Shown here one piece after another: positions 1 through 59,890 of a stretch of 64,000 bases of DNA. The notes beneath the pieces were generated by a model. It was given only the letters and a program-made list of their open reading frames with translations, did no database searches and was not told where the DNA came from. Position 1 is the first letter of the stretch; every line of letters begins with the position of its first letter. The stretch comes from a phage. The stretch is from the sequence record PZ445527.1. One strand, 5' to 3'. Made by a program: the position numbers and the translations under genes.

Positions 1-93
1 GTTGCCGAACAATCTTTCGAACCTTTCAAAAATTTGCCCGCGCCCACCGACCAAAATTAAGAGATCTCGAGTGTTACGCGTGACCTAACGATT

Positions 94-1077: not shown

Positions 1078-1080
1078 AAT

Positions 1081-2054: not shown

Positions 2055-2929
2055 TGAGTAAATCCTGGGGAAAATTTATTGAAGAAGAGGAAGCTGAAAT
2101 GGCTTCCCGTCGTAACCTAATGATTGTCGATGGAACTAACTTAGGCTTTCGCTTCAAACATAACAACAGTAAAAAACCATTTGCCTCAAGTTATGTTTCC
2201 ACTATTCAGTCTCTTGCAAAATCTTATTCTGCTAGAACTACAATAGTTTTAGGAGATAAGGGGAAGTCTGTATTCCGCTTAGAACATCTCCCCGAGTATA
2301 AAGGTAATCGTGATGAAAAGTACGCACAACGTACAGAAGAAGAGAAAGCGCTAGATGAGCAGTTCTTCGAGTATTTGAAGGATGCTTTCGAATTGTGTGA
2401 AACTACATTCCCAACTTTTACCATTCGTGGTGTAGAAGCAGACGATATGGCAGCTTATATCGTTAAGCTCATCGGGCATCTTTATGATCATGTTTGGTTA
2501 ATCTCTACAGATGGTGACTGGGATACTTTATTAACAGATAAAGTTTCTCGTTTTTCTTTTACTACACGTCGTGAGTATCATCTTCGTGATATGTATGAAC
2601 ATCATAATGTTGACGATGTAGAGCAGTTTATCTCTCTAAAAGCAATTATGGGTGATTTAGGGGATAATATTCGTGGTGTTGAAGGGATCGGAGCAAAACG
2701 CGGATATAATATTATTCGTGAGTTTGGTAACGTACTGGATATTATTGATCAGCTTCCACTGCCTGGAAAGCAGAAATATATACAGAACCTGAATGCATCG
2801 GAAGAACTGCTTTTTCGAAACTTGATTCTGGTTGATTTACCTACCTACTGTGTGGATGCTATTGCTGCTGTAGGTCAAGACGTATTAGATAAGTTTACAA
2901 AAGATATTTTGGAGATTGCAGAACAATGA
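2054..2929 (+). CDS. D15: flap endonuclease / 5'-3' exonuclease (T5 D15-type)
   Basis: 291 aa; N-terminus MSKSWGKFIEEEEAEMASRRNLMIVDGTNLGFRF matches the T5 D15 exonuclease as I recall it; FEN motifs. Confidence 0.93.
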   Translation: MSKSWGKFIEEEEAEMASRRNLMIVDGTNLGFRFKHNNSKKPFASSYVSTIQSLAKSYSARTTIVLGDKGKSVFRLEHLPEYKGNRDEKYAQRTEEEKALDEQFFEYLKDAFELCETTFPTFTIRGVEADDMAAYIVKLIGHLYDHVWLISTDGDWDTLLTDKVSRFSFTTRREYHLRDMYEHHNVDDVEQFISLKAIMGDLGDNIRGVEGIGAKRGYNIIREFGNVLDIIDQLPLPGKQKYIQNLNASEELLFRNLILVDLPTYCVDAIAAVGQDVLDKFTKDILEIAEQ

Positions 2930-3372
2930 TTAAAATTAAGTTAACTCATCCAGATTGTATGCCTAAGATTGGCTCTGAAGATGCCGCAGGTATGGATCTG
3001 CGAGCATTCTTTGGTACTAACCCTGCCGCAGATTTACGTGCTATTGCACCAGGCAAATCCTTAATGATTGACACCGGTGTCGCGGTGGAAATTCCGCGAG
3101 GTTGGTTCGGTTTGGTGGTTCCGCGTAGTTCTTTAGGAAAGCGCCATTTGATGATCGCAAACACCGTAGGAGTAATCGACTCAGACTATCGTGGCACTAT
3201 TAAGATGAACCTCTATAATTATGGTTCTGAGATGCAAACTCTGGAGAATTTCGAAAGACTTTGTCAGTTAGTAGTAGTACCACACTACTCAACTCATAAT
3301 TTTGAAATTGTTGACGAACTAGGGGAGACTAATCGTGGGGAAGGCGGATTTGGAAGTTCAGGAAGTAAATAA
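2926..3372 (+). CDS. dut: dUTPase
   Basis: dUTPase motifs AGMDL, RSS, IDSDYRG, GGFGSSG; start overlaps D15 stop. Confidence 0.9.
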   Translation: MIKIKLTHPDCMPKIGSEDAAGMDLRAFFGTNPAADLRAIAPGKSLMIDTGVAVEIPRGWFGLVVPRSSLGKRHLMIANTVGVIDSDYRGTIKMNLYNYGSEMQTLENFERLCQLVVVPHYSTHNFEIVDELGETNRGEGGFGSSGSK

Positions 3373-3612
3373 TTTTACTGATCCTAATATGGTAAGGTCC
3401 TTTGAACATTCTTCTGCTATAACAAGCATAATGATATGTAAAAGAACCATACGTAAACAATGTAGTTCTTAAATAGGTCGTGAAGGCAATGTAATCTATT
3501 GGAATGAAGGGGGCTTTTGTTGAATTGTGTGGCAATTCGGAAGATCATATACTTAGAGCTATGTTAGCCGTATTTAAGTTAGGTATTATTGCTGGTAGTA
3601 GATAATAATAAA

Positions 3613-3644
3613 CCCCGGTGGACAATCCACCGGGGTTTTCTTTT
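3613..3644. terminator. bidirectional rho-independent terminator between convergent dut and tail-fibre genes
   Basis: hairpin CCCCGGTGG-acaat-CCACCGGGG followed by T-run on + and A-run upstream (T-run on -). Confidence 0.7.
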
Positions 3645-5826
3645 ATTTAGCAAGAAGTTGTTTTACTAGTTCCTTGAGTTCGTCAATTTGCTTCTGTTGT
3701 GCTTGAATACAACCTAAAAGATCCATTACAATTGGGTTAATATCTACACTAGGTCTATCTTGATATTCCTCCCCGATCTTGTTTCCTTCGTCATCAAAAA
3801 CCTCGGTTCCTGGTATTGGGAATTGGTTGTGTTTTATATATTGAGGCGCTATTTTTTCCGCATCCTCAGCAATTATCCCAAATCTAACACGTTGTTTTTC
3901 ATCATCCTTATAAACGAAGTTAACCATTTCAAGGTTTGTAACTCTTGATAGAGCCTCATTGCTATCTGCGGTTGAAATATCCTTTTTATACTCCCTTCCT
4001 GAAGTACCTTGAACTGCAAGAACACCACCTGTACTTGGAAGGGTGTTAATAAATTGATTAGTGTTATCATATATATTTCTTTGTACAAAATAAGGAGGAT
4101 TTCCAGCTAGCGAAGGTATCTCAAAAGATACTCTTGCTCCAATATCTGTTGAGCCACTTCTACCAGTAGCAGCTATCTCAACTCTAGGGTAAGAATTTTG
4201 TTTCAAAAAAACACAAGTTCCATTAATACTAGCATTAGAGTATAACTCAGCGAAAATGTTAACTGTTGCGTCTTCACCTATTTGAAGAATCTTTTTCCTA
4301 TAAGACCCGTCTGCTTTATATGAGTGGGCCGAAAGACTTCCGTCTGTTTCATGACCTAACCTAATAGCAGCTGTCCCATCTTCTCTATAAAAAGCAATCC
4401 ATTGATTAACTGACGCACTAGGACGCAACATAACAATAGCTTCCGAATTTAGGAATTTTTGCGTTTCCTCCCATTGTCTACCAATCTTTTGCCTTGCTTC
4501 TGAGGCTGTTATTGCTCCAGTTCCACCTCGCTCAATAGCAAGAGGTTTTGACTCTCCAGTAGTTGACTGAACGCCCCACTTGCCGTTATTGGCAATAAAC
4601 ATGCTAAGATTGCCATCAGGTGATGTAATCTGATTGAACTTGCCAGCATCTGTACCTGTAGTACAAAAAACTCCTTGCACCCCAAGATTTACCTTTGCGT
4701 CTGTTACATTCCTTGCGCCAGTACCTCCTTTGGCAACTGCCAAAGGTATAAACTGTTTACTGGTATTATCATAAGCACCCCATCCCTGTAGGTCATTAAT
4801 ATATAAATGGTAATTACCATTACCACTTTTTATTTGAGTCTCTCCACTAGGTAATTGAAAGTATCTATTAATTTGATTATCAAGAACTCCCTTCCACCAA
4901 ATAGCTCCAACATTTTTTGTCCAGCGATAGCTATATAGTGTCCCAGTATAATCACCAACAAATACCCCAGTGTAACCATGGACGCCGTCCATAGCAGAGA
5001 TAAAACCAGCTAATACGTTTTCTGAAGAAGCAATACTTGGATATCCAGTAGTTGTACTCTTAACAATACGTATAAAGCCTAGAAATTCAGATGGTTCAAC
5101 AGTAATATCAGAAACGTGTCTTGGAGAATCCCCAAGACCTATAGAAGCTTTCATACCAGAAGCTACATTTTCAGCTTTAGTAGCAGATGCCGCCGCATTA
5201 GTTTCTGAGGTCTTAGCATTGGTTTCTGATGCTTTAGCAGCATTAGCACTGTTAGCAGCAGCAGTTTTACTATTATTAGCATTAGTTTCTGAAGTTTTAG
5301 CAGCAGAAGCAGATGCAGCAGCATTAGTTTCTGAGGTTTTTGCTGCTGAAGCAGATGCAGCCGCAGCAGTTTTGCTACTATTAGCATTGGTTTCTGAGGT
5401 TTTTGCAGCCGTCTCACTAGCTTTTGCATTGGTTTCTGAAGTTTTTGCAGCCGTCTCACTAGCTTTTGCGTTAGTCTCAGAAGTTTTTGCGTTAGCCTCA
5501 GAAGTTTTGGCGGCTCCAGCACTGTTAGCGGACGCAGTAGCAGAAGAAGCAGACTGAGTTGCAGACTGCTGAGAAGATGCCGCAGAAATTTCTGCTTCAT
5601 TTTCAGAATCTTTAGCATTTAGCTCCGACTGTTTTGCATTAATTTCAGATTGCTTAGCTGCTGCAGCAGATGCTTTAGAAGACTCTATAGCAGAGACTAG
5701 CTCTCCTGCTGTAATAGAGCTGATTGTACTTCCCAGAACTATAGTATATTTAGGATATTTACTTGCAGTTATACTATTCTGGTCCATAGTGACCATTTGC
5801 TGTAAAATTATTTTAGTTATAGCCAT
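3643..5826 (-). CDS. L-shaped tail fibre protein (pb1-like) with C-terminal intramolecular chaperone (peptidase S74-like) domain
   Basis: N-terminal Ala/Ser/Thr-rich repeats (AKTSETNAKASETAAK...); C-terminal auto-chaperone-like domain; first gene of the late operon. Confidence 0.75.
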   Translation of the reverse strand: MAITKIILQQMVTMDQNSITASKYPKYTIVLGSTISSITAGELVSAIESSKASAAAAKQSEINAKQSELNAKDSENEAEISAASSQQSATQSASSATASANSAGAAKTSEANAKTSETNAKASETAAKTSETNAKASETAAKTSETNANSSKTAAAASASAAKTSETNAAASASAAKTSETNANNSKTAAANSANAAKASETNAKTSETNAAASATKAENVASGMKASIGLGDSPRHVSDITVEPSEFLGFIRIVKSTTTGYPSIASSENVLAGFISAMDGVHGYTGVFVGDYTGTLYSYRWTKNVGAIWWKGVLDNQINRYFQLPSGETQIKSGNGNYHLYINDLQGWGAYDNTSKQFIPLAVAKGGTGARNVTDAKVNLGVQGVFCTTGTDAGKFNQITSPDGNLSMFIANNGKWGVQSTTGESKPLAIERGGTGAITASEARQKIGRQWEETQKFLNSEAIVMLRPSASVNQWIAFYREDGTAAIRLGHETDGSLSAHSYKADGSYRKKILQIGEDATVNIFAELYSNASINGTCVFLKQNSYPRVEIAATGRSGSTDIGARVSFEIPSLAGNPPYFVQRNIYDNTNQFINTLPSTGGVLAVQGTSGREYKKDISTADSNEALSRVTNLEMVNFVYKDDEKQRVRFGIIAEDAEKIAPQYIKHNQFPIPGTEVFDDEGNKIGEEYQDRPSVDINPIVMDLLGCIQAQQKQIDELKELVKQLLAK

Positions 5827-6248
5827 TATTGAGTTACCCCATCACTAATATAAACTTTGCCTTCCATAATACGGAAAGAACTAGCAGCACTACCAACAGC
5901 TGTTCTAGTAATAATTACATCATAGTATCCAGCTAATCTCTGTCTAGGATTATATCTATCTCTTTCTTTGGATGCTTTGGAAGCAATAGTAGTTACAGCA
6001 CTAACGGGTAGACTTATAGATGCTACTCCTTGCTTCGCATCAACAATAGATGTAGTAAAAGATGCTAAAGTTTCAGCCCCATCTTCTAGATTGCTTTTAA
6101 TAGTACCTCTTAAAGAGAAACCAGTAAGGTCTACCGGTTTAGATGTAGAGGGATAAACACTATCATCCACATCCATAAATTGCATAAGTAAACCATAAGG
6201 TACGTTCTCGTCTACTACTAAATCAATAACTCTATTTTCTGTACTCAT
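5826..6248 (-). CDS. collar/baseplate-associated protein (T5 p132-like)
   Basis: 140 aa; position between tail-fibre and pb4-like genes matches T5 order. Confidence 0.55.
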
Positions 6249-6252
6249 TATT

Positions 6253-8355
6253 TTACCTTATATGGATATACCCGTTTTGCAGGTCTATCTTCATTTTGTA
6301 GGATCCCTCTGGGTTAGAGGATAGTGCTGCTGCACGATCATATATAATATTTACACCAATTTGTGATAAGAAAGCATTGTTAGCAACAATTTTACTAGCA
6401 GTTACCGTGCCATTAACTATCATATCCCCGTGTAAAACCATTGCAGGACTAGCCCATGCCGAACCATTCCACTGCCTAGTAAACGCTGTTCCTGGTGCTC
6501 CACTTTTATACTCGGTTAATACATCATATTTAACAGGGCCAGTACCAAAGTTAGATGTAAAGAATGAATTAGCTTGTGAATCATTCCATGCTGTTAAATT
6601 AGCGATAGCAAGAGAATACATTCCTGGACCACGTTGTCCTGTATCTCCTGGCCTACCATCAGCACCAGGTTTACCATCAGCCCCCGGTCTACCATCAACA
6701 CCTTCTGTACCACTCCATTGAACTACGTCTGACCAGCTAGTTCCAGATACTAATTGATTAGTAACAGGATCTAAAGTACCTGTAGAACAGTAAATATTTT
6801 GAGTATTAGATGTTCTATTAGGTGGAGTTTTTGACCAACCTGAAGGTGGATATGCAGGGCTTGTAGGTTTAGCAGGTAGTGAGGTTCCTAGAGTATAGAT
6901 AAATACTGTTTGCTTACCTTGTATACCTGTTGCTATATCGATGTCACCGTTAGGTGTACCAATTACAACCCCACTAGAGATTCTTAATGTATCACCGTCG
7001 TAACGAATGTACTGGGTAGCATTGCCAATATCCAGTTTTGGTTTAGCAGTAGCATTATCCATACCCATCCAGATACCAGATCTTGTATCACCCCAAGTTT
7101 TGCCTTGAGTATAAATTGCTGGATTATCTTGACCAGTTAGATTGGTCATAACAAAATTCGCAGCATTTATAGTTTTAGTGATTACACTACCATCAACGTT
7201 AACTATCTTTTTAATAGGGTCAAAAGATATTGGTGCTTTTCCTTCTGCATCTAGAAGACCTATATTAATAGCACCAGTAGCAGCATCTATCAGGAAAGTT
7301 TGTTTCCAAGTAGAACCATCTTTGATCTTGCCCTTAATATATGCGTAGTTTACCTCAATACCGGTTTCGTTTACAAAACTGTTATCTAGTGGAGTATCTT
7401 CCTTTAGTATAAAAGTTTGTACAGCAGAGTCGGTAGTATCCTGCTTACTTGGTCCCCAGGCAATAGACGACACTTTAAATTTATGCTCTACTTTCCACGG
7501 GAATGATATAATTGTTGCTGATTGGGCAGCACCCACATTAATTTTTTGTGCTTTAGTCCATCCAGTTCTTGCAAACTCTGCTGAATCTATATAGGATAGA
7601 ACAAACTCACGAACATTAGCCCCTGCACCTCTATTCCAATCCCACTGAACACGCAAATCATAGCGTTCTTTACCATCTGCAATGCGCGCTGCTTTAAACT
7701 CAATATTAGTGGGTGCGGTAGGAGGAACAAAATTATAGTTAACTTCAAAGACAGTAGGATACTCATAGTATCCAGATGAATCAATAGTAACACCGTCTGG
7801 TAGGCTTATTTGACCAGAAATTCTTACTTTATAGAATCCGATTGGTACGCCACCAAACATAATAGTTGGCATCAGTGCACCAACGTAATATTTAACCCAC
7901 GGGTTATTGGCATTAGAATTATTCTTTAATTCTATAGTACAATAATCGGCCTCCCCTGTAGTATCTATATAAACTATGGGGGCCCCAACCCCAACATCTA
8001 CTGGTTCTGACTCGCATCGAGCACCTGTGATTCTAGGTGCTGATTTCATTTTAAAAGTTTGCTTATCAGATAGATTAATTCCTATCTGTGCATTAAGAAG
8101 TTCAGAGTCTATTATGGAATCATAAAATGCACCCTGAACTTCATAAGTTGTTGTAGGTTTTAGATTATTAATAGTTACAGAGAAAGTATCAACACCCGTG
8201 AAGTCTCTACGAGTAATATTACTACCTTCTTTTAGCCAAAAAGATCTGCCTATAACGTCATAATCTGAGTAAATAGAATGCTGGATATACGCCAACGTAT
8301 ATCCAGTTAAGACGCTATTTAGAACCATTTTAGCTGGTGCATTATTTGAGATCAT
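6253..8355 (-). CDS. baseplate central fibre protein (pb4-like) with collagen-like repeat
   Basis: 700 aa; Gly-X-Y run [24 protein letters not shown]; synteny. Confidence 0.65.
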
Positions 8356-30296: not shown

Positions 30297-31031
30297 TTAT
30301 GCGACTTTTAGTTTCTCAATATATTGTTGCGGGCTGCAACTATATTCTGCGCGTTCTTCCTCGGTCATACTTTCCCAACATAATTGCAAACGGTCGGCTA
30401 GGAACTGATAATCATTATCATCGTCGAGAGATTCATCGATAAAGGTTTCACCTATCAATGTAACGCCGATTGATAGAATATCGTTAACGGCTTGCGCGTC
30501 CAGCGTTTTAAATCCGTATGATGCCGCCGCCGCCAATACTCCTTTATGGTCGTCGATCATCGTGAAATCAGCGTTCGGATATAGCTGCTTAAATAACTCA
30601 AAATAATGGCTTTTATATATAGCGTCTTTACTGTGGTATATTTCGCTAACTTTATCAGCTTCAAAATATTTATGTAGTGTATCGCGGGAAAATACACGGA
30701 TATTACTATCCCCACGCCCTCGCAGTCCTTGCTTGCGTAGGTAATAATAATCTGATTTGCTCATTAGTCGAGCGGTGCAAATAATGTTTAACGTGTTGGC
30801 GTCATTCATGCATTGGCGCATATATGTAACAAGCGGCAATAGTGTGTCTTGCATTATTAAATCATGTTTACACGCTTCATTCTTATACTTATTTAGATCT
30901 AGATTGCCCTCACTATCAAAGCAAGGCGCTACGCGATGGAATGAATTAACGACCGTGCCGTCAAGATCCCAAATCATGACGCGGGAAATATGCGGGAAAT
31001 TACGGGTAATATTCGTTTTAACTTGATTCAT
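30297..31031 (-). CDS. dmp: 5'-deoxyribonucleotidase (HAD family), T5 Dmp-like
   Basis: 244 aa; HAD motif I WDLDGTVV; size matches T5 Dmp. Confidence 0.8.
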   Translation of the reverse strand: MNQVKTNITRNFPHISRVMIWDLDGTVVNSFHRVAPCFDSEGNLDLNKYKNEACKHDLIMQDTLLPLVTYMRQCMNDANTLNIICTARLMSKSDYYYLRKQGLRGRGDSNIRVFSRDTLHKYFEADKVSEIYHSKDAIYKSHYFELFKQLYPNADFTMIDDHKGVLAAAASYGFKTLDAQAVNDILSIGVTLIGETFIDESLDDDNDYQFLADRLQLCWESMTEEERAEYSCSPQQYIEKLKVA

Positions 31032-31105
31032 TTTGTTACGTTCTCCATTAAAGGGATTAAATTAAATTAATTCAGCCCACTGGATGGGCTGGACTATTCC
31101 AGCTA

Positions 31106-31501
31106 TTAAAGGCCAGACGCTAACGCATCAGCGATGACGGTAATATCTTCGCCCGATACGCTGGAACGAATCCCCGCACAAGTATATACTTTTGCGCTCG
31201 CTAGCTGGTCATCAAGGCAAGCGGGGCAAGGCGTGACAACTGCAAAGGCTAACCCTGATTTCACCGCGTCAATAATGGTCGTTTCCTGCTTCATCGTGTC
31301 AATGTAAACGCCTTTCGCCTTGATGCGGCTGGATAGTTTGCCCGTGGTATAGGCGAAAGTAGTGATCTGTAGCGCCTCATTAAACTCGATTAAATCATCG
31401 ACAACGTGACCGGCCTCAACGTGATACCGCTCACCATTAGAATAAACCAGAACGATAGAAGACTGAGCGCGATCGAATGGAATACGGTTAGAAATAGCCA
31501 T
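31106..31501 (-). CDS. hypothetical pre-early protein
   Basis: 131 aa ORF between dmp and A1. Confidence 0.5.
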   Translation of the reverse strand: MAISNRIPFDRAQSSIVLVYSNGERYHVEAGHVVDDLIEFNEALQITTFAYTTGKLSSRIKAKGVYIDTMKQETTIIDAVKSGLAFAVVTPCPACLDDQLASAKVYTCAGIRSSVSGEDITVIADALASGL

Positions 31502-31570
31502 TTTTATAACTCCAATTAATTTAATAAACTTTTATAGGGGCGGTATATTTCAACCGCCAACCTGATTTAT

Positions 31571-33235
31571 TTACGCAAAAAATTTACCGTTCTTAAAGTC
31601 GATCAAAGTGCGCTGACCGTTTGCATAGGTAATTAAATGCGTTTGCGTCCAGCTTGACGCGCCAACGTTGTAACCCATGTCCAGACTACCAGCCACGCCG
31701 GCGGTATATACCCCGCCGTAAATGCTGGCGGTATGAGTGTGCCCCGTGTTTAATTTGCCCAATTTCTTAAATTGCTTCGGATTGCCGCGGCTCCCGTTTA
31801 TGCCATTGTGACCGTGTACGCCGCACTCAATGCCTGCAATCTTGAAAGATTGGTCAGTCGTTAGAAAAATGGCGTTAAATTCACAACCTGCAACCTTGCG
31901 CAACGCATAATCAAGCACGTTGAAAGTATCGTCTTTTTCTGCAATAGCTCCGTAAATTGCAGCATTAAGGCGGTGATATAGTTCCGCGTTCGCTGGGTCG
32001 TCTTTAATGTTAGCATTACGATCATCAAGCCAACGGGATAGCGCCAAATCGTGATTCGATTCAACAATGATTGTTTGAGAAAAATCGCGCTCCATCGATT
32101 CCAGCACGCGACCGGTATCGATAAGATCATCCAGAATTTTATCACGTCCAGCGGCGTACTGTTTTGCTAGGAATACACCGCTGGCGCGATTGTGATGGTT
32201 GCGTGATGTAAAATCATGCACGTCATGCACGAATTGATATTTTGGTTTAAGAATATCAAGCAAGCTATTTTCGCCAGCCCATGACGCTGCGGCGCAATCG
32301 TCATCTAATTTTTCGGCGTGTATGTCACCATATTGCAAGCCTAAAACATGCCCCGACGTTTCATAGCATCCGGCGGGAGTGGCGCAAATATTCAAATCGT
32401 AAAACACGCCGCTTTCATCCATCGTTTCAAGCTGGCGAACAAAAAATTCTCCGTCTTCGTCGAACTCGACAACAAGCGCGCCAAAGTTATGCAGCGCCTC
32501 CGCTTTCTGTCCTGCTTTCTGCTGGATGTAATTTTTTAGCGTTGCCGTTCCGGTTGAATACATACGGCGCACTACTTCACCTTTTAAAGCTGGAACGCTT
32601 TCGGCGGTGATTTTAGCCGCTCCAATTGCCAGACCTTCAAGATTAAGCGCGGTTGCAGTTTCAGCGAATCCAGAAAGCGGATAGTCTGCGGTAGGTAAAA
32701 CGTTAATTTCAGCCATGAAAGCAAAGCGGCGGTTATTTAAAAATACATTCTTATTGCAGATATATTTGTCAAAAGCGGAATCATATTTGATTCCGTTGGC
32801 GCCCTCGCCATTTTGAAAACCGTTTTTGTTATAAATAAACTTGCTAACCAGCAAATCAGCGCCGATAAATTGGGCATATTGCTCCAGTGAGGCCAAAAAG
32901 TTTTTATGCGGGAACGTATTATTCTGAATCGATGTAATAATAAAGCGTTTTCCCTGCTTTACTTCCCATTGCTCGATCGTGCTAGAAATAACTCCAGCGG
33001 CTTCAGGGCGGTCATCGTTTTTTATGGCTTTTGCTACTTTCGCCGCTTTTGGTTTCGCTGGTTTATTTGCTTCCAGCCAGTCACAAATCGCAGTGGAATG
33101 TTTTGCAGTATCGTAAACCGCTTTTGATATATCGTCGCATACTTCCAGCTTAGTAGCGCGCAGACGTTTACCGTAGAAATTGAAATCAGCGGCAAGGTTG
33201 AGGATCTGGGTTTGTTTTTCTGCGGAAATAACCAT
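31571..33235 (-). CDS. A1: A1-like pre-early protein (calcineurin-like metallophosphoesterase / nuclease)
   Basis: 554 aa; metallophosphatase motifs GDIHAE, HDVHDF, ESNHD, GHTH. Confidence 0.8.
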   Translation of the reverse strand: MVISAEKQTQILNLAADFNFYGKRLRATKLEVCDDISKAVYDTAKHSTAICDWLEANKPAKPKAAKVAKAIKNDDRPEAAGVISSTIEQWEVKQGKRFIITSIQNNTFPHKNFLASLEQYAQFIGADLLVSKFIYNKNGFQNGEGANGIKYDSAFDKYICNKNVFLNNRRFAFMAEINVLPTADYPLSGFAETATALNLEGLAIGAAKITAESVPALKGEVVRRMYSTGTATLKNYIQQKAGQKAEALHNFGALVVEFDEDGEFFVRQLETMDESGVFYDLNICATPAGCYETSGHVLGLQYGDIHAEKLDDDCAAASWAGENSLLDILKPKYQFVHDVHDFTSRNHHNRASGVFLAKQYAAGRDKILDDLIDTGRVLESMERDFSQTIIVESNHDLALSRWLDDRNANIKDDPANAELYHRLNAAIYGAIAEKDDTFNVLDYALRKVAGCEFNAIFLTTDQSFKIAGIECGVHGHNGINGSRGNPKQFKKLGKLNTGHTHTASIYGGVYTAGVAGSLDMGYNVGASSWTQTHLITYANGQRTLIDFKNGKFFA

Positions 33236-33332
33236 AATAATAAAACTCCATTAAAGGGATTAAAAACGTTTGTTATTGGCAAATATTGCCAGATATAACG
33301 CCTCAAATAATAGGCGTTATAATTTGCAATAT

Positions 33333-33548
33333 TTAACTAATTGGCATTAGGCTAGAACTAACCCCACAAGCAATGGCGGCTATTAAACAAAGTAAGCCCA
33401 ACCGCTTTGCTAATTTAGCTTTACGCTTAAAATAATACGAATCCAGATCATTTTGGAAGTATGCAAATAATAATGAGGCCGCCATAATAAATAAGCCTAG
33501 AATGAGGGATTCAGTAGGGTAAAAGACCATTTTAATAACTCCAGTCAA
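33333..33548 (-). CDS. small membrane protein
   Basis: 71 aa, two predicted TM helices. Confidence 0.4.
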   Translation of the reverse strand: MTGVIKMVFYPTESLILGLFIMAASLLFAYFQNDLDSYYFKRKAKLAKRLGLLCLIAAIACGVSSSLMPIS

Positions 33549-33586
33549 AGGAAATTATAGCGGGGAATATTCCCCGCTAATTAAAT

Positions 33587-33994
33587 TTATTCGCCTGCGG
33601 CTTGTTTTACTTCATCGGCAACGCCTAACAGCTGCGCCACGGCGTCCAGCGTTTCTAATTTTGCGCTTTCCAGGGATGCCAGATCGTCAACGTCTTTGAT
33701 AATGCCGGAATCAATGGCATGTTTTGCAATAACGCGCACGTAATGCGCTTTGCGGATAGAACTACCGCCGCCAACTTTGCGCGGCTTATCGCTTTTCTGA
33801 TACGCTTTCGCGCTGGTCAATTTTGAGCGAACGGACACGGGAGAAGTCGCGCCAACTGCTTTTGCAATTTCTCTCAGGCCGTCGCTGTTGGCGAACTCCA
33901 AGCCGTTCTCATTGATTAGCTGTTGATACATGGTAACAGCCTGCTGGGTGTTTTCTTCATTCCAAGAGAATTTTGCGGTTTTAACGTTAGTCAT
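33587..33994 (-). CDS. A2: A2-like pre-early DNA-binding protein
   Basis: 135 aa; position upstream of A1 as in T5. Confidence 0.65.
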   Translation of the reverse strand: MTNVKTAKFSWNEENTQQAVTMYQQLINENGLEFANSDGLREIAKAVGATSPVSVRSKLTSAKAYQKSDKPRKVGGGSSIRKAHYVRVIAKHAIDSGIIKDVDDLASLESAKLETLDAVAQLLGVADEVKQAAGE

Positions 33995-34090
33995 GATATA
34001 AACTCCAATTAATTTAATTTAAGGGATAAGATTAACACAATGTTAATCGTTATATACCCCGAACTGCTGGGGTATATAAAGTTAACACTA

Positions 34091-34342
34091 TTACGCTACA
34101 GCTTCCCATTTTTCGTTACGTTGAACAACCTTTACAACGTCGCCGGATTTAACGCGAACGTTATAAATAGTTTTCCCGTTGTTACTCCGTTCCGTTTCAG
34201 CGTAAACCGCATCAATTACATCAAACGGCATAAGCGACGCGCCTTTAATGCGTTCGGCTTTTCCGGTTAGTTCATCCGTTTTAGTAACGAAAGGAATGAA
34301 GACGGATTGACCAATTTTCGGCGCATTAGTAACGTTTTTCAT
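34091..34342 (-). CDS. hypothetical pre-early protein
   Basis: 83 aa ORF upstream of A2. Confidence 0.45.
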   Translation of the reverse strand: MKNVTNAPKIGQSVFIPFVTKTDELTGKAERIKGASLMPFDVIDAVYAETERSNNGKTIYNVRVKSGDVVKVVQRNEKWEAVA

Positions 34343-34569
34343 AGTATAAACTCCAGTTTATTTCGTGGATTGTTCCGCATTACCTGCTAAAAAGTAACAG
34401 GTAATAAGAAAAAATCCGCTCGCCAATATAATCAATTTAAAGAACTCCACTCAGGCCGCTATATCCCGTTAGGGGGCGGGGCACATTTTGGCAAGTACCG
34501 GCCGTCAAATTGTATCAAGTTATCGCTCTTATCGAACTGGGTACATCTTAAAGCCTATCGGCTAGGGTG

Positions 34570-34773
34570 TCAAACTATTTTTTGCAGTTTTTTATGATTT
34601 TCCTTCAGGTCGATCATAATATTTCGCCAGATCATTTCTAGACCTTGCTGGCGGCCTTTCTTGTACTGCTTAAATCGATATTTTACCGATCTTTGCGCTA
34701 TTGTCAATAGCTTTCTAGTATTGCCATCCAGTTTTTTGGCTGGTTTACCAGTGACTAATAAAGTTTGTTTCAT
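34570..34773 (-). CDS. hypothetical basic protein
   Basis: 67 aa Lys/Arg-rich ORF. Confidence 0.3.
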   Translation of the reverse strand: MKQTLLVTGKPAKKLDGNTRKLLTIAQRSVKYRFKQYKKGRQQGLEMIWRNIMIDLKENHKKLQKIV

Positions 34774-35446
34774 ATCTGCGATCCCTTATAATGTAATAAG
34801 TTTGCCGCCGATAGACTTTAAGATATACCCAATTTTTAAAGAGCGCGGCGGTAAACTTCCCGCCGTGTAGTTCGTCATTGCCGCCCTACGAGATAAATAA
34901 TAACAAATGCCAAAAATGGCGCAACCTTATTTTTGTAAAGAAACGTAAAGAAAGCAAATACTCGCACCGCGTCCGGCGATTGCCCAAGTTTAAAGGAAAC
35001 GGGCGCGCGGATACCATAAAATCCAGCAGATAGGCAAGTAATTTTTTCATTTATATTTGCCTTGCCCTACTTGATTTTTCTAGAATCCATCAGGTGACGA
35101 TAAACGGGCTATCCCTTTATGATGGGATACCTGAAAAATTTACCTCGTTGTAGGACGTTTTAGGCCGCTTATTTTCGAGTTAACAAATATTTAACAAAAG
35201 CAAAATTGAAAAATAGTTGTAAAAGGTATTGACTTTTAAAAATCAAGATTAAACGAGTTATTTTATAAAATTAATTAATTGACTTTTATTTGTTGTTGTG
35301 TACTAGAAAGATAGCAGACTAATAATTACTAGAATGATAATCATGCTGGTGGATTGTAACAGCCTGAACCATTAGCAGACTACTAATTCCGGAAAATCTC
35401 ATTAGCCAACTAACTATTTCCTGAGTTATAATATAAACATAAATTA

Positions 35447-35600
35447 ATGAGAAATAATAACTATAAAAATAATCACCATTATAATAATAACTATAAAAAT
35501 AATAACTATAAAAATAATCGCCATTATAATAATAATTATAAAAATAATCGCCATTATAATAATAACTATAAAAATAATCACCATTATAATAATAACTATA
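35447..35600. repeat. tandem direct repeats, about 26-27 bp unit, about 5.5 copies
   Basis: unit ATAATAA(C/T)TATAAAAATAATC(A/G)CCATT repeated head to tail. Confidence 0.85.
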
Positions 35601-35639
35601 AGAAACTATCGGTCTAAGTGAGAATCACTATCATTTAAG

Positions 35640-35721
35640 TTATTCACAAAGTTATCCACAGCACAAAATGATTTGACACGATAGGCGGCGATATAAGGGC
35701 TTATCCACAGACTTATCCACA
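35640..35721 (+). promoter_or_regulatory. cluster of DnaA boxes
   Basis: TTATTCACA (35640), TTATCCACA at 35652, 35701 and 35713 (three perfect consensus boxes), all same orientation. Confidence 0.75.
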
Positions 35722-36041
35722 GGTTTTCCTACTGTATAAATATACAGGGTAAAAAGGTAGTGTTAACGACTGCAATCAATTTTAAGCGGCCTAAATCGCT
35801 TTCTAACGAGCTAAATGATGCGGGGTAATATTAAAGTAAAGCCTCCACCCGTTGCCCTGGGTGAAGGGTATTGATATTTCTACTTTTACCGTTAACAACG
35901 AAAACGAGTAATAATTAACCTAATGTAAAGTTTTGTAAAGGTCGCCATAATCGGTGGCTTTTTTGTTATAATGCCCCTACACCGTTTGAGGACGGTTGAA
36001 AATTTTCCCAAAAAAATTTTGGAGGCTTAAAATGGTTGCGT

Positions 36042-36262
36042 ATTCTTCTTCTGACGCTCTTTTCACTGGAAAAGGCTGGGTATCAAATCGCTGGATCATT
36101 CAAGAAATGGTGCGGGAGTTCGGCATTGCTAAAACTTACACTACCATTCAGGCGCTTTATGATAATGATCAAATCGATCAGCAAACGGCGGGCTTTTTGC
36201 TGGATACCCTGAAGGCGGAACATTGTACTAAAAAACAAGCCGCCAAAATTGCTTTAATGTAA
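36042..36262 (+). CDS. hypothetical protein (73 aa)
   Basis: RBS GGAGG 6 nt upstream of ATG 36042; first gene of + strand cassette between inverted DnaA-box arms. Confidence 0.5.
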
Positions 36263-36304
36263 CTAATAACGGGGCGTTATTTTCGCCCCACTAACTAGGG
36301 GGGA

Positions 36305-36457
36305 ATGAAAATGGTTATTTTTCGATCAATTCTGGCGGGTATCTTGGGCGCTGTTTTATCACTTTTTGCCATAGCTTTCGGCGTTCACGCGGTTATTGTT
36401 GGCGCGGGTATCGCCGTTTTTTCTTATTTGCTGGGCTGCATGAGTAAAGGGGAATAA
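36305..36457 (+). CDS. small membrane protein (50 aa)
   Basis: two hydrophobic helices; G-rich RBS. Confidence 0.4.
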   Translation: MKMVIFRSILAGILGAVLSLFAIAFGVHAVIVGAGIAVFSYLLGCMSKGE

Positions 36458-36459
36458 AA

Positions 36460-36672
36460 ATGATCCGCAACGTTTCTCTTGCTCGTTCGAAAGGCTTTAA
36501 GCTGGTGGACGTTAACACGTTCGAGCGGGAAGATTGTAAAATTGAATATATAGCACGGAATAAAAACGCCTTCCGTGTTACTGAAAAGAAATTCGATAAG
36601 CGCGGCAACGTGATCGCTGAAACGGTTAGACACTTTGCCACCTTTTACGCGGCCTTTCGTGGGGTACTATGA
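36460..36672 (+). CDS. hypothetical protein (70 aa)
   Basis: ORF tightly packed after previous gene. Confidence 0.5.
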   Translation: MIRNVSLARSKGFKLVDVNTFEREDCKIEYIARNKNAFRVTEKKFDKRGNVIAETVRHFATFYAAFRGVL

Positions 36673-36794
36673 AAAGCGTTGTTATTGTTATCCTTGCAAT
36701 GGTTGGCGGTTTTACCGCCACCTTATTTAAGAATGATCCCCTTTCATTGGGGATTTTTATGCTTTTATCTGGTTACCTGATTGGGAGGTTATAA
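36669..36794 (+). CDS. small membrane protein (41 aa)
   Basis: ATGA start/stop overlap with previous ORF; TM helix. Confidence 0.4.
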   Translation: MKSVVIVILAMVGGFTATLFKNDPLSLGIFMLLSGYLIGRL

Positions 36795-36795
36795 A

Positions 36796-37140
36796 ATGGT
36801 AATTTATGAAGGCAATCGCTTTGTTACTAATTGCCGCCCGGCATTGTTAGCAAACTACTTAAACCAGCTTTCTCCTGAATATAAGGGCGTTGTTAATATT
36901 TACGAGGGAAAAGCGCATTATAAGATTAATGCGGTCGTTGCCCGTGAACTAGCGTTTCAATTTTTGACCTTTGCATCTTGTGATATTCAGGTCATGGGGG
37001 AGGCGTTAATCGCAGAAAATGAAAATGATTTTATTAATATTTTTCGCAAAGTATGCACCGAGCGCCTGATAATGAAAGGCGCATATATTCAATCCACTGC
37101 GGATAGTATTGAAACAGCGTTTCGAAAGGTGGCACAATGA
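36796..37140 (+). CDS. hypothetical protein (114 aa)
   Basis: RBS GGGAGG then ATG 36796. Confidence 0.5.
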   Translation: MVIYEGNRFVTNCRPALLANYLNQLSPEYKGVVNIYEGKAHYKINAVVARELAFQFLTFASCDIQVMGEALIAENENDFINIFRKVCTERLIMKGAYIQSTADSIETAFRKVAQ

Positions 37141-37155
37141 AATTATATATTTTCG

Positions 37156-37434
37156 TTGGTAATAGTAAGGCAGCTAATGATTCCGCTGGGGGCGATAACG
37201 TTCGCCACTATTGGCAAAAATATATTTACTAGGGTTATTATGAGCAATAAAATTATTATAACTAAAACTACCACAATGGTAGACGTTTTTTACGTGCCCG
37301 ATACGCCGGAAAACCGGCAAGCGGTCGAGCGGGGTGATTATGGTAGCGTTATTTATGATGCCGATGGCTATTATCGGCATTTGGTCGATTCCTATGGGGA
37401 AGAGGAGAAGATCACGCATCGACTACCAGACTAA
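37156..37434 (+). CDS. hypothetical protein
   Basis: 92 aa ORF, start uncertain. Confidence 0.35.
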   Translation: MVIVRQLMIPLGAITFATIGKNIFTRVIMSNKIIITKTTTMVDVFYVPDTPENRQAVERGDYGSVIYDADGYYRHLVDSYGEEEKITHRLPD

Positions 37435-37469
37435 TAATAACGGGGCGCAACTATCAGGGAGTGCCCCCA

Positions 37470-37507
37470 ATTCTCAAATGAGAATCATTCTCAAATGAGA
37501 ATGATTC
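37470..37507. repeat. overlapping near-perfect palindromes TCAAATGAGAAT(C/G)ATTCTCATTTGA
   Basis: dyad symmetry read directly; flanked by GGGGCGC...GTGCCCC inverted repeat. Confidence 0.8.
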
Positions 37508-37747
37508 TCATTTGACCGCGCCCGCGATGGTTAGCCTGCTAATGATTAGGGTGTTACGTGTCGCCTTGTGTGATCGTTAGCTCGCTAACTAATTTTCAAG
37601 CCTCCTCCAATTTTGCCCTTGTTTTAGTATCCCCGCCAAAATTAAACGCGTTAGAATGCGATTCAGGACGTTTTAGCGGTATATTAGAATTATTCACTGC
37701 ATAGGAATACTGTATAAATATACAGTAGAATAACCTGGGGATAAGTC

Positions 37748-37816
37748 TGTGGATAACGCTTCAAAATGGCTAGGATTCTGTCAAGTCAAATCGTGCTGTT
37801 GATAAGTCTGTGGATA
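37748..37816 (-). promoter_or_regulatory. DnaA boxes in inverted orientation
   Basis: TGTGGATAA at 37748-37756 and 37808-37816 (reverse complement of TTATCCACA), preceded by palindrome TACTGTATAAATATACAGTA (37708-37727). Confidence 0.75.
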
Positions 37817-37839
37817 ACTTAAATAACAGTGTTTCTCAC

Positions 37840-38047
37840 TTCCGTTTTTAAATGCGAATCATTATCATTCGTATTCCACTATCTAACCGATAATCATTCC
37901 ACTTTTTAAATGAGAATCGTTTCACTTCTTGAATAGTTCTCATTCCCTTTCTTAAATGCGAATAATTATCATTCGCATTTCACTTTTTAAATGAGATTGA
38001 TTCTCATTATCATTCGCATTCAGGCGAGCAGGGCAATTGCCCTGCGC
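37840..38047. repeat. array of AATG(C/A)GAAT...ATTCGCATT palindromic motifs ending in perfect 18-bp palindrome GCAGGGCAATTGCCCTGC
   Basis: repeated TTTTTAAATG(A/C)GAAT units and dyad-symmetric AATGCGAATAATTATCATTCGCATT. Confidence 0.75.
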
Positions 38048-38050
38048 TTT

Positions 38051-38276
38051 TGTGCAAATCCGACATCTGCTCCAAGGGTTACGTGCTGGCGTGTATGTGC
38101 AAATCCGACAATTTTTGGTAGTGTGCAAATCCGACCCGAAAAATTTTTATAGTGTGCAAATCCGACGACGAATCTGTCTCCCAAAAACTCCAGCAATCAC
38201 GAACTGCGTTCGAATCCTGTGGGATATGTGCAAATCCGACATGGTTTTTCTAGGATTAAGATGTGCGAATCCGACA
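38051..38276 (+). repeat. six direct 14-mer iterons GTGCAAATCCGACA (one variant GTGCGAATCCGACA)
   Basis: copies at 38051, 38097, 38123, 38154, 38228, 38263; irregular 25-75 bp spacing; same orientation. Confidence 0.85.
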
Positions 38277-38605
38277 AGATTTTTGTGACTTCGATTGAAG
38301 GGTGTGTGATTGTGTGGGTTTGAGGAGAAGATGAGAGAGCGAGAGAAATTTTGGGACTAGAAGGATGTGGGCGCAGGATTGGTGCGGAGCACCTGATTTG
38401 CGGGGATTTTGGGGAAGATGTGGGATAATTTGGGAAGATTTGAGATAGGTGCAGAAAAAGTGAAATTTTATTAGCAAAATGGGGCAAAATAGCTTGACAA
38501 GTGAAAATTTCTGTGGCTCTAAAAACTCAGGCAATCATGGGCCTTCGGCCCGAAATAATGCTGCTATTTTCAGGAGAGTAGGAGTTCCTAAAAACTTAGG
38601 CGTTT

Positions 38606-38654
38606 GTGCAAATCCTACCATAAATTTCTAGAATATCAATGTGCAAATCCGACA
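38606..38654 (+). repeat. two further copies of the 14-mer iteron
   Basis: GTGCAAATCCTAC (38606) and GTGCAAATCCGACA (38641). Confidence 0.8.
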
Positions 38655-56529: not shown

Positions 56530-56604
56530 TGGTAGTTAGTAGTGGAATCGAACCAGGTTCCACGGTTTACAAGACCGTTGCATCGCCAGCAATGCTTTAA
56601 GAGC
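56530..56604 (-). tRNA. tRNA-Thr(UGU)-like element with unpaired acceptor stem
   Basis: CCA end, T-loop TTCGATT, perfect anticodon arm ACGGT-CTTGTAA-ACCGT, D-arm GCAT-TGCTGGCG-ATGC; the 5' seven nucleotides do not pair with the 3' acceptor strand; abuts HNH gene stop. Confidence 0.35.
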
Positions 56605-57398: not shown

Positions 57399-57474
57399 TG
57401 GAGCGGCTAGAGGGAATCGAACCCTACTCAGCGAGGCTTGGAAGGCCTGCGACACAACCCGTGTGCTTAACCGC
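57399..57474 (-). tRNA. tRNA, anticodon tentatively UCC (Gly)
   Basis: encoded CCA, T-arm TAGGG-TTCGATT-CCCTC, 7-bp acceptor stem with one G-U; anticodon loop CTTCCAA; atypical short D-loop. Confidence 0.5.
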
Positions 57475-57482
57475 TTATTGTT

Positions 57483-58406: not shown

Positions 58407-58476
58407 AAGGAATAGAAGGACTTGAACCTTCATGAGTTAGACCATTTAACTCAACCGCTTTTTAGGGTATATTTCT
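58407..58476 (-). ncRNA. aberrant tRNA-like element
   Basis: canonical T-arm GAAGG-TTCAAGT-CCTTC and acceptor-like ends, but only one internal hairpin (TGAGTTA-AATGGTC-TAACTCA); no separate anticodon arm found. Confidence 0.3.
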
Positions 58477-58816: not shown

Positions 58817-59185
58817 AAATTCTTTAATTTACTAAGGCTATTAGCTCGGCGTAACTACAGCACCTTCGCTTCAAGCGGAAGGAACCGCGTCATCTCGCAA
58901 ACCCAATACACTATTCAGTTGCCGCTGAATCTAGTGGACTAATCTAGAACTTCTCCCGAGTCGTAGGGATCGTGCTTTTTGGCAGCCAGTCCTAGGTCGA
59001 GCTAATACCTTAGTGAATTATGATGAGGATTTCTCCCATATCAATTTATATAAATATTATAACAAGAAATTAATCATCAAGCAATTGAGTTTTTCTTGAA
59101 ATTGGTAGCGGGTTCCAGTACTGCCCTGGACTTACTTAGCTTATGAGACTAAGAAGAACTCTATGCCTTCCACCCGCAATTGTTT

Positions 59186-59309
59186 GGTTATTCTAGACAG
59201 GATTCGAACCTGTTATCACTTGTGCGGACTTACGAGAACCATTCTTTCACTCGAATCGAACGAGCTTCTGCCCTAGCCAAGCTGGTTTCCCCATCAACCA
59301 CGCTAGAAT
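59186..59309 (-). ncRNA. about 121-nt tRNA-like element containing two T-arm-like hairpins
   Basis: perfect 7-bp acceptor-like pairing ATTCTAG/CTAGAAT enclosing D-arm-like TGGT-TGATGGGGAA-ACCA and T-arms GCTCG-TTCGATT-CGAGT and ACAGG-TTCGAAT-CCTGT. Confidence 0.3.
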
Positions 59310-59431
59310 GTTTGATTGTTTTCAGTGCAAGAGTCCGAGTCTTGGACACGACCGTTTCGCAAGTACATAGGCAGCTTATCATGAGTCAGCACTTCCGAAT
59401 TGCTAGCCCCGTGTTCTGCACTGAAATTTTA

Positions 59432-59779
59432 TTAGTTTAACCGTAAAGTATTATCTAATTCACCATTAATTGTTCGGCATTCCTCTGGAATTGCTGGTGT
59501 GGCCTTGTATTCCCACCACTCAGCACCATCATATTCCCCACGTTCTAGCCAAGTTCCGTCGGCAAACCATACATTACCATAAAGTAATTGTCCACCGTAT
59601 CCAGAATCATACTCAAAGTCTAGGTTATCAAGAAAATCCTCAATATCTTCTTCTGTATAGCCTAAAGGTAATACCCAAACTTTTTTATCCCCATAATACC
59701 CGAATTCTATTTTAATACACTTAATTTTAGAATTGGTATTTTTTAAGGCAAGTAACAACTCTTCTTTAGCATTACGCAT
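59432..59779 (-). CDS. hypothetical protein
   Basis: 115 aa ORF. Confidence 0.5.
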   Translation of the reverse strand: MRNAKEELLLALKNTNSKIKCIKIEFGYYGDKKVWVLPLGYTEEDIEDFLDNLDFEYDSGYGGQLLYGNVWFADGTWLERGEYDGAEWWEYKATPAIPEECRTINGELDNTLRLN

Positions 59780-59802: not shown

Positions 59803-59879
59803 TTTGGCGCGACTGATGGGATTTGAACCCACATTCCCTCCCGTGATAGGGGAGTACCATTACCAAGCCAGCCACGGTC
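59803..59879 (-). tRNA. tRNA with atypical anticodon loop CTATCAC (anticodon uncertain)
   Basis: CCA encoded, T-arm GTGGG-TTCAAAT-CCCAT, acceptor 6 of 7 paired, perfect anticodon stem CTCCC/GGGAG. Confidence 0.45.
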
Positions 59880-59890
59880 GCATAATTTAT

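Follow-up and report, generated by a model that had tools for sequence, protein, structure and literature searches.

The RNA2 locus

The window analyzed here is a stretch of 64,000 nucleotides (nt) of phage DNA (record PZ445527.1), and the feature under study is an element resembling a transfer RNA (tRNA) that is read on the minus strand from 59309 to 59189; all 12 tRNA genes called by ARAGORN in the window (57.4-63.8 kb) lie on the minus strand as well. Judged by sequence identity and gene order, this element is the window's copy of phage T5 RNA2, and it is thus already known, being the ortholog (96% identical, with the same neighbors) of the annotated T5 feature rna2/T5s06. In the T5 RefSeq record (NC_005859), rna2 (T5s06) is a misc_RNA at 32959-33083, described as "RNA2, tRNA-like stable RNA with unknown functions," and it maps onto 59310-59186 of the window; the blastn alignment with NC_005859 32960-33085 (under "rna2: RNA2") covers 126 of 127 nt at 96.0% identity. 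RNA2 is also annotated in AY543070 and in Salmonella phage 5 (AJ604531), and has been present in annotations of T5 records for about twenty years.

The boundaries of the element are the same as in T5, and so are its neighbors: the upstream open reading frame (ORF) at 59432-59779 (minus strand) is 97% identical to T5.067, and beyond it lies tRNA-Asp at 59805-59881 (minus strand), in the T5 order. Under a covariance model the window copy reaches 149.8 bits and the T5 copy 147.6 bits, and the two models R1 and R2 match 59189-59309 (minus strand) at 149.8 and 135.2 bits. A scan with the family model finds a single RNA2-type copy in the window. In the RNA sense, the 5' half, from 59309 downward, reads ATTCTAG CG TGGT-TGATGGGGAA-ACCA G CTTGGCTAGGGCAGAAG CTCG-TTCGATT-CGAG TGAAAGAA, and the 3' half, ending at 59189, reads TGGTT-CTCGTAA-GTCCG CACAAGTGATA ACAGG-TTCGAAT-CCTGT CTAGAAT A, after which comes ACCAAAC. 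The parts of the element, all on the minus strand, are as follows.

59185-59310, minus strand: whole RNA2 element, with C(-1) at 59310, the 121-nt core at 59309-59189, and a lineage-specific A and CCA at 59188-59185
59303-59309, minus strand: acceptor stem, 5' strand (ATTCTAG), with a potential eighth pair from the C at 59310
59283-59300, minus strand: D arm (TGGT-TGATGGGGAA-ACCA), in which 4 of 4 pairs covary
59242-59281, minus strand: inserted module of 40 nt (arm II, first T-like hairpin, and linker), the removal of which leaves a callable tRNA
59265-59281, minus strand: arm II (CTT-GGCTAGGGCAG-AAG), a short outer stem and a G-rich loop with a conserved C-GAG/TAG-GG
59250-59264, minus strand: first T-like hairpin, H1 (CTCG-TTCGATT-CGAG), with 100% of cells paired
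59242-59249, minus strand: purine-rich linker TGAAAGAA, mean identity 0.96 across 13 lineage representatives
59225-59241, minus strand: arm IV, of anticodon type (TGGTT-CTCGTAA-GTCCG, loop C-U-CGU-A-A), the anticodon arm called by ARAGORN in the deletion construct
59214-59224, minus strand: variable region CACAAGTGATA of 11 nt, which varies in length and sequence (0.65)
59197-59213, minus strand: genuine T arm (ACAGG-TTCGAAT-CCTGT), with 97.2% of cells paired
59189-59196, minus strand: acceptor stem, 3' strand (CTAGAAT), and position 73 (A at 59189), with covariation and -1:73 pairing

A first-pass annotation of this sequence had described a 121-nt element closed by a perfect 7-bp terminal helix (ATTCTAG/CTAGAAT) and holding a D-arm-like hairpin, all of which is borne out by the minus-strand reading. 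The two T-loop hairpins that it listed are both present, although the first is CG-TTCGATT-CG and not of the form GG...CC, and its statement that there is no convincing anticodon arm does not stand: an anticodon-type arm, TGGTT-CTCGTAA-GTCCG, occupies RNA positions 69-85. Its general idea of a tRNA-like RNA that is not an ordinary tRNA agrees with the T5 annotation of RNA2, and the comparison with the T5 locus that it proposed returns the ortholog described above.

The block is found by blastn in 437 of 50,697 phage records, nearly all of them from T5-like phages that infect Salmonella, Escherichia, or Shigella; where relatives are more divergent, the alignment stops close to the edges of the element. 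The number of matched records, the covariance scores, and the excess of paired cells over shuffled sequences (see below) put the block far above chance. Among records with a T5-type head gene, blast detects RNA2 in 261/267 from Salmonella, 115/132 from Escherichia, and 4/4 from Shigella, so that about 94% of enteric T5-like genomes keep it; at the sensitivity of blast, it is seen in 4/81 such records from Klebsiella and 0/352 from Vibrio. In nearly all of the 437 records RNA2 is either unannotated or overlaid by a "hypothetical protein." Such coding sequences run across RNA2 in the Acinetobacter phage Acj9 (Acj9p148, L002 1384-1614) and in several T5-like records (H16, H25, H45, H56), and are probably false gene calls over a structured RNA.

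Architecture of the Element

ARAGORN calls no tRNA at the element, either by default or with its intron option (-i), and an Rfam search over 8 kb at E up to 1 returns nothing there. With the element alone, the Rfam tRNA model (RF00005) gives a partial match of 20.6 bits against a gathering threshold of 29, covering only 59189-59239, which includes the T arm. The resolution of the locus into ordinary tRNAs with other boundaries, which the first-pass annotation had named as the outcome that would contradict it, is thus not seen with ARAGORN defaults or at Rfam thresholds. A pair of ordinary tRNAs was rejected, since nothing appears at default thresholds and only lowered ones yield two weak overlapping calls (at -ps70) or one with an "intron." A tRNA with an intron was likewise rejected: the -i option finds none by default, reporting a "tRNA-Arg(ccg), 48-nt intron at 34" only at -ps80, and the insert precedes the anticodon stem and so lies outside the anticodon loop. 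The canonical cloverleaf order is broken by 40 nt with two extra hairpins, between the D stem and the anticodon-type stem.

Deletion of these 40 nt in silico (RNA positions 29-68; 59281-59242; arm II, first T-like hairpin, and linker) leaves a remainder that ARAGORN calls by default, as tRNA-Thr(CGU) for the window, T5, L025, and L005, and as tRNA-Met(CAU) for L062. The constructs from Serratia phage Slocum and contig L098 are called at -ps90, so default calls are obtained in 5/7 lineages. When the other module is deleted instead, there is no default ARAGORN call in any of the seven members. Ordinary tRNAs of the phage T4 cluster align to the broader family model in two ways: tRNA-Leu and tRNA-Ser use the acceptor, arm IV (as anticodon arm), the variable region, and the T arm, skipping 51 model positions, and tRNA-Arg uses the acceptor, D arm, arm II, and the first T-like hairpin, with the rest skipped.

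Because only deletion of the 40-nt module gives default tRNA calls, the element is best described as a single tRNA skeleton into which two hairpins have been inserted where the D stem meets the anticodon stem, a description that fits better than the fused tRNA pair entertained in the first-pass annotation. The skeleton consists of the acceptor, the D arm, the anticodon-type arm (CUCGUAA loop), the 11-nt variable region, and the T arm; the insertion comprises arm II (a small G-rich hairpin), a second T-arm hairpin, itself complete, and the linker UGAAAGAA. The recognition of this architecture, the structure derived from compensatory change, and the constraint found on the insertion, greater than on any other part, may be new here.

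Compensatory Change and Conserved Surface

The family set comprises 22 distinct members from T5-like, Serratia, Pectobacterium, Yersinia, and T4-like Acinetobacter phages and from metagenome contigs. MAFFT mis-gapped the 5' end of divergent members despite N-padding, and we instead used a hand alignment of 15 full-length members and an Infernal alignment of all 22. In the Infernal alignment, which is fitted to the model structure and so biased toward it, 89.0% of pair cells form standard pairs, compared with 68.7% in shuffles (0/500 shuffles reach the observed value). In the same alignment, changes on both sides are seen at 23/30 pairs, and pairing amounts to 34-50% when the partners are shifted by 1-3 columns. 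By helix, the pairs that change on both sides and the cells that are paired are distributed as follows.

Acceptor: 7/7 pairs change on both sides, 89.9% of cells paired
D stem: 4/4 pairs change on both sides, 93.8% of cells paired
Arm II, outer: 3/3 pairs change on both sides, 79.4% of cells paired
Arm II, inner: 1/2 pairs change on both sides, 68.4% of cells paired
First T-like hairpin: 3/4 pairs change on both sides, 100% of cells paired
Arm IV: 2/5 pairs change on both sides, 80.0% of cells paired
T arm: 3/5 pairs change on both sides, 97.2% of cells paired

The hand alignment agrees with these figures and has 3-4 Watson-Crick pair types at each acceptor position, a D stem that is 100% paired with three pair types per position, and a first T-like hairpin that is almost always paired, with 2-3 types per position and six stem variants. 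Unrelated acceptor strands each occur with their own complement (ATTCTAG/CTAGAAT, GGGTACT/GGTACCC, GACTTTG/CAAAGTC, ACTGACC/GGTCAGT), and L005, L062, and L074 have canonical tRNA D arms, e.g., GCTC-ATGGGTA-GAGC. Arm IV has two invariant G-C pairs flanked by wobble pairs that vary, and 18/22 members have U.U at one position. The compensatory changes support the predicted acceptor, D stem, and both T-arm hairpins, and more weakly the anticodon-type arm. RNAalifold, which makes its own structure prediction, recovers all helices but arm II, which is the least certain of them. The minimum-free-energy fold does not stand out from those of shuffled sequences (z = -0.59) and is uninformative; an indistinct thermodynamic fold is common for tRNAs.

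The base before ATTCTAG pairs with the "discriminator" (-1:73) in most lineages, which extends the acceptor stem to 8 bp. This pair is C-G across the T5 clade and U-A in L005, L062, and L098, and the window itself has a C.A mismatch, with an A at position 73 where T5 has the C-G eighth pair. The pair beyond -1:73 does not form, and the T5 annotation begins at base -1. Because of the -1:73 pairing, the acceptor/T stack is predicted to be 8/5, rather than 7/5, in most lineages.

Conservation is distributed unevenly along the element. As mean identity, with one representative for each of 13 lineages, the segments rank as follows.

Inserted T-loop (T-loop 1): 0.98, the most conserved segment, with 6/7 columns invariant
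Linker UGAAAGAA: 0.96
Arm IV, 5' strand: 0.95
Genuine T-loop (T-loop 2): 0.89
Anticodon-like loop: 0.88
Acceptor and D stems: 0.46-0.50

The linker is exchanged, for GAAGTCAAA, only in Pectobacterium phage DU_PP_V and Yersinia phage phiR2-01, and the anticodon-like loop has the consensus C-N-C-R-U-A-A, with the variants CUCGUAA, CCCGUAA, CACGUAA, CGCGUAA, CGCAUAA, and CACAUAA. The acceptor and D stems drift freely, being kept only as pairs, and the block that runs from the inserted T-loop through the linker to the anticodon-like loop is the most constrained part, a conserved and presumably functional surface.

An RNA2 Family Beyond T5-Like Phages

Weak blast matches in T4-like Acinetobacter phages gave a shared core, [stem]-TTCGATT-[stem] TGAAAGAATGGTTC-N-CGTAA. 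Exact-pattern scans of viral, metagenome, and genome collections, followed by filtering, were used to find further lineages, and cover sequences with the exact pattern. The scans added Serratia phage Slocum, DU_PP_V, and phiR2-01; a 164-kb viral contig (L005), a 1.46-Mb metagenome contig (L062), a 247-kb contig (L074/L112), and a 10-kb contig (L098); and Acinetobacter-type copies in L002, L003, L008, L050, L051, and L136. A second pattern, built on arm II and run over viral contigs, returned only two phage types that were already known. With a covariance model seeded by eight T5-type rows and a hand-drawn structure, the 22 distinct members score at least 45.6 bits (E at most about 4e-8), and everything else, namely ordinary tRNAs, scores 21.9 bits or less. 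Rfam has no family for the element, neither at gathering thresholds nor at E up to 10. The family beyond T5-like phages is a possible addition of the present analysis.

Most family members sit in tRNA clusters, on the tRNA strand. The Acj9 copy comes straight after tRNA-Gly, the L074 copy begins 8 nt past tRNA-Ala, and the L062 copy (6023-6138) has tRNA-Gly on one side and tRNA-Pro on the other, within a one-strand array of 47 tRNA genes that spans 8.3 kb. The clear exception is L005, whose 10-kb locus contains no tRNA gene; L098 and Henu6 have their nearest tRNA genes at a distance of 0.5-1 kb. A conserved protein partner beside the element was considered and ruled out, since the clades have no ORF family in common within 4 kb.

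Two further observations concern the hosts of these copies. The contig L062 (Ga0308158_10000004, 1.46 Mb, with the array in 1-8283) is of a size that we take to be too large for a phage, and the family may therefore extend to a cellular genome or to a mobile element of very large size. In two genomes of T4-like Acinetobacter type, a tRNA with the amber-reading anticodon CTA (labeled "tRNA-Pyl" by tRNA callers) is found near the RNA2-like element, at 2773-2845 in L002 (Acj9) and at 7053-7127 in L136, where it directly adjoins the element.

The 3' End and the Neighboring tRNA Region

At all true tRNA genes of the window, an encoded CCA precedes AA(A/T), whereas most RNA2-family members encode no CCA: after the 3' helix, the other members have GACA, GACT, GACC, AACA, AACT, or AAAT. 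The discriminator and near-CCA that had been noted at the 3' end are present in the window, but they are lineage-specific and due to a local deletion. In T5, CCAAACAATTGCGGGT comprises the CCA encoded by tRNA-Pro, the trailer of that gene, and the beginning of the gene that comes next, and the same string stands directly after RNA2 in the window; CCAAACAATTGCGGG in the window corresponds to the T5 tRNA-Pro 3' end with its trailer, which the deletion has moved next to RNA2. Because this CCA/trailer string directly adjoins RNA2, the window lineage has lost RNAIV, T5.066, and tRNA-Pro, which come after RNA2 in T5, leaving RNA2 followed by A-CCA. The opposite arrangement is found in phage DT57C, where T5.067 is followed directly by tRNA-Pro and RNA2 is absent. 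By these gene orders, the tRNA region is undergoing reshuffling at tRNA 3' ends.

Several observations were made on the surrounding sequence. The junction at 59182-59189 (compared with L001 3060-3090) places the tRNA-Pro CCA and trailer CCAAACAATT right after RNA2, and phages phA11 and SE11 (records H2 and H3) have about 490 bp extra at this junction. Directly downstream of RNA2, at 59103-59177 (minus strand), is a divergent copy of the T5 initiator tRNA-fMet gene (T5t14), with the acceptor of T5t14 (GCGGGT.../...ACCCGC) and a CTCATAA loop, a non-canonical D region, and a GGCAGTA T-loop. This copy is not called by default ARAGORN or by Rfam at E up to 1, is called as tRNA-Met (cat) at lowered ARAGORN thresholds, and may be a degenerate tRNA or another tRNA-like RNA. 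On the other side, the 121 nt between T5.067 and RNA2 (59311-59431, minus strand) are 97-98% conserved in the closest T5-like phages and not in Epseptimavirus-type relatives; within them, 59327-59413 gives a weak ARAGORN "tRNA-Ser" at -ps70, and the stretch could be a leader of an RNA2 precursor or a degenerate tRNA. The tRNA-Asp at 59805-59881 (minus strand) has the anticodon ATC (A34), where T5 and DT57C have GTC, as well as a C6.A67 acceptor mismatch; either the gene is decaying or its anticodon is a variant, A34 being unusual for a bacterial-type tRNA-Asp.

The T5 record lists five further "stable RNAs" in the same region, none of which is RNA2-like under the family model; paralogy of RNA2 with RNA1, RNA2H, RNA3, and RNAIV was rejected, as none of them scores above tRNAs. 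In the window, three sub-threshold Rfam matches, at 57402-57475 (tRNA-Sec model, 30.9 bits), 56534-56604 (tRNA model, 24.5 bits), and 58407-58476 (tRNA model, 22.2 bits), all on the minus strand and without an ARAGORN call, may be the other "tRNA-like stable RNAs" of T5 (RNA1, RNA3, and others).

Proposed Role and Alternative Explanations

From the identity and architecture of RNA2 we infer a processing route and a role as a mimic. RNA2 is probably a structured RNA derived from a tRNA, co-transcribed with the tRNA genes and excised by tRNA-processing enzymes, which keeps the acceptor/T stack and the D arm and does not decode. It would be transcribed together with the neighboring tRNA genes; the lack of any terminator-like site or promoter excess around RNA2 fits such co-transcription. 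RNase P, 3' trimming, and CCA addition would then recognize the acceptor/T stack and release a stable RNA of ~125 nt, and the stack and D arm would be kept so that tRNA enzymes can release and stabilize RNA2. The conserved block would provide a binding surface, making RNA2 a non-decoding tRNA mimic toward some tRNA-binding factor.

Recent work found that tRNAs from the tRNA-rich region of T5-like phages neutralize the PARIS and retron defenses, so that RNA2, strongly conserved there and probably non-decoding, may reasonably be considered a candidate for another counter-defense function. This region of roughly 8 kb is spontaneously lost in laboratory strains, and its loss sensitizes the phage to retrons (PMC11555353); the strain T5Mos, which lacks 30661-38625 and thus RNA2, is viable (PMC11464382). 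The most likely use of RNA2, which we put forward with low confidence, is as a decoy or competitor in phage-host conflict over tRNAs, favored because RNA2 lies in a dispensable tRNA-rich region that already supplies counter-defense tRNAs. A broader and more speculative proposal is that RNA2 is the founder of an uncurated phage RNA family, "tRNA + inserted T-arm module," that spread with tRNA clusters across unrelated phage families (T5-like phages, T4-like Acinetobacter phages, and large uncultured phages) and to the 47-tRNA array of the 1.46-Mb contig, and in which the invariant block (second T-loop, UGAAAGAA linker, and C-N-C-R-U-A-A loop) traps or competes for a tRNA-binding factor, e.g., a tRNA-cleaving or tRNA-modifying defense effector. 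If this were true, RNA2 would be an RNA-only counter-defense element, and T4 rnaC could be a reduced relative.

Several points weigh against this interpretation of RNA2 as a processed, non-decoding mimic with a use in counter-defense. The T5 fragment that restores resistance to PARIS, 31885-32870, excludes RNA2 (PMC11464382), and among nine cloned fragments rescue from retrons Eco2 and Eco7 was obtained with tRNA-Tyr and ORF75 only (PMC11555353). Because T5Mos is viable and the PARIS and retron rescue fragments map elsewhere, RNA2 can be dispensed with under laboratory conditions, and it does not account for the suppression of PARIS, retron Eco2, or retron Eco7. No experiment in the accessible literature assigns T5 RNA2 a function, and the "stable RNA" of about 125 nt is the annotation of the depositors of the T5 record. 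Support for arm II and for one position of arm IV is poor, arm II also being missing from the RNAalifold prediction, the Infernal alignment has the structural bias mentioned above, DT57C does without RNA2, and the loop of the T5 clade looks canonical (C32 U33 CGU A37 A38) and might allow decoding in that clade.

This loop is one reason to consider that RNA2 is instead a working tRNA of odd shape, charged with Thr or Met, in which arm IV is the true anticodon arm (CGU, reading ACG, in the T5 clade) and the insertion is tolerated or removed. The window and the T5 clade have the loop CUCGUAA, with U33 and A37, ARAGORN calls tRNA-Thr or tRNA-Met by default once the insertion is gone, compensatory change maintains the acceptor, D, and T arms, and the window has a discriminator-like A and CCA, as at true tRNA genes. 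Across the family, however, position 33 is U, C, A, or G and the "anticodon" alternates between CGU and CAU while the remaining loop is fixed, the stem holds the conserved U.U (18/22), the acceptors are unrelated between lineages, so that no single synthetase identity is preserved, and CCA goes unencoded in most members yet is encoded by every true tRNA gene here; because of this variation, decoding by RNA2 seems unlikely. Most lineages moreover have 8 acceptor pairs, T5 annotates a 125-nt stable species, and we know of no bacterial mechanism that removes a 40-nt insert at position 26/27; overall, a working tRNA is improbable. We also regard it as unlikely that the element acts only in cis, its fold recruiting RNase P or other RNases to punctuate or stabilize tRNA/mRNA transcripts and the released RNA having no role of its own. 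Such an element would suit a position between ORF T5.067 and further tRNA genes, with no terminator-like site or promoter excess nearby, and on the tRNA strand, inside tRNA clusters, in most members. Any ordinary tRNA gene would serve as punctuation, however, and a cis-acting role leaves unexplained why the inserted T-loop, linker, and anticodon-like loop are the most conserved parts and why phage families that are unrelated, and in which its neighbors differ, retain the same module.

The recombinogenic nature of the T5-like tRNA region, as in the window deletion that joins RNA2 to the tRNA-Pro trailer, the degenerate tRNA-like sequences nearby, and the dispensability of the element in the laboratory and its absence from DT57C would all be consistent with a decaying relic, i.e., a tRNA gene that took up part of another tRNA through illegitimate recombination, was damaged by it, and is now a functionless passenger. 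This is very improbable, given that five helices are kept paired by compensatory changes across lineages with no stem sequence in common, that the loops and linker are nearly invariant, and that T4-like Acinetobacter phages and metagenome lineages have the element too, besides ~94% of enteric T5-like genomes. Finally, an AUG after the purine-rich stretch in the conserved core opens an 8-codon frame in the window (AUG GUU CUC GUA AGU CCG CAC AAG UGA), as might be expected of a miniature RNA like transfer-messenger RNA (tmRNA), with a tRNA-like domain and a short tag ORF. The frame is unconserved, ranging from 6 to >20 codons in relatives, its AUG is absent in the two phages DU_PP_V and phiR2-01, and the ARAGORN tmRNA search (-m) finds nothing; such a mini-ORF is refuted by the first two of these findings, and the chance that RNA2 works in this way is negligible.

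Comparison with Known tRNA-Like RNAs

Compared with a canonical tRNA, such as tRNA-Thr(CGU) or tRNA-Met(CAU), RNA2 has the same acceptor, D arm, anticodon-type arm with a 7-nt loop, TTCGAAT T-loop, and location in a tRNA cluster. It differs in its 40-nt two-hairpin insertion, the 8-bp acceptor of most lineages, the 11-nt variable region, the variable position 33, the U.U in the anticodon stem, and its sub-threshold scores. The bacterial tRNA-Sec also has 8 acceptor and 5 T-stem pairs, as do most RNA2 lineages (C.A at -1:73 in the window), but the D stem of RNA2 has 4 pairs and a 10-nt loop, rather than 6 pairs and a 4-nt loop, and RNA2 lacks the UCA anticodon, its loop carrying CGU. The Rfam tRNA-Sec model (RF01852) scores the element at 12.2 bits against a threshold of 47.

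The species 1 and 2 RNAs of phage T4 (rnaC and rnaD), described in literature of 2010 and 2025 as still of "unknown" function, resemble RNA2: they too are stable and tRNA-like, measure 119-139 nt, and are encoded where a phage tRNA cluster ends. Two stretches of rnaC, TCGATTCGAG-GAAA...CGTAAG-CCG and the T arm, are locally similar to the family and stand in the same order; rnaC differs in lacking counterparts of the 5' acceptor strand, D arm, and arm II of RNA2. Its local alignment with the window copy scores 24, which is reached by 1/500 shuffles for the full sequences and 3/1000 without the 3' T arm; that with the Acj9 copy scores 33, reached by 0/500 shuffles. With filters off, family model R2 gives rnaC 15.7 bits and rnaD no match. 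The local similarity of rnaC is suggestive, and homology with the RNA2 family is not established by these scores, because the model places rnaC inside the range of ordinary T4 tRNAs (10.7-22.7 bits).

In the tRNA-like domain of tmRNA, the tRNA-like module of bacterial YrlA/Y RNA, and mascRNA, the acceptor/T-arm stack is kept for tRNA enzymes and the decoding part is replaced. RNA2 may follow the same concept, by analogy with these mimics. It differs from them in that no Rfam model of theirs matches the locus at E up to 10, and in having, instead of a tag ORF, a complete cloverleaf with an inserted T-arm module.

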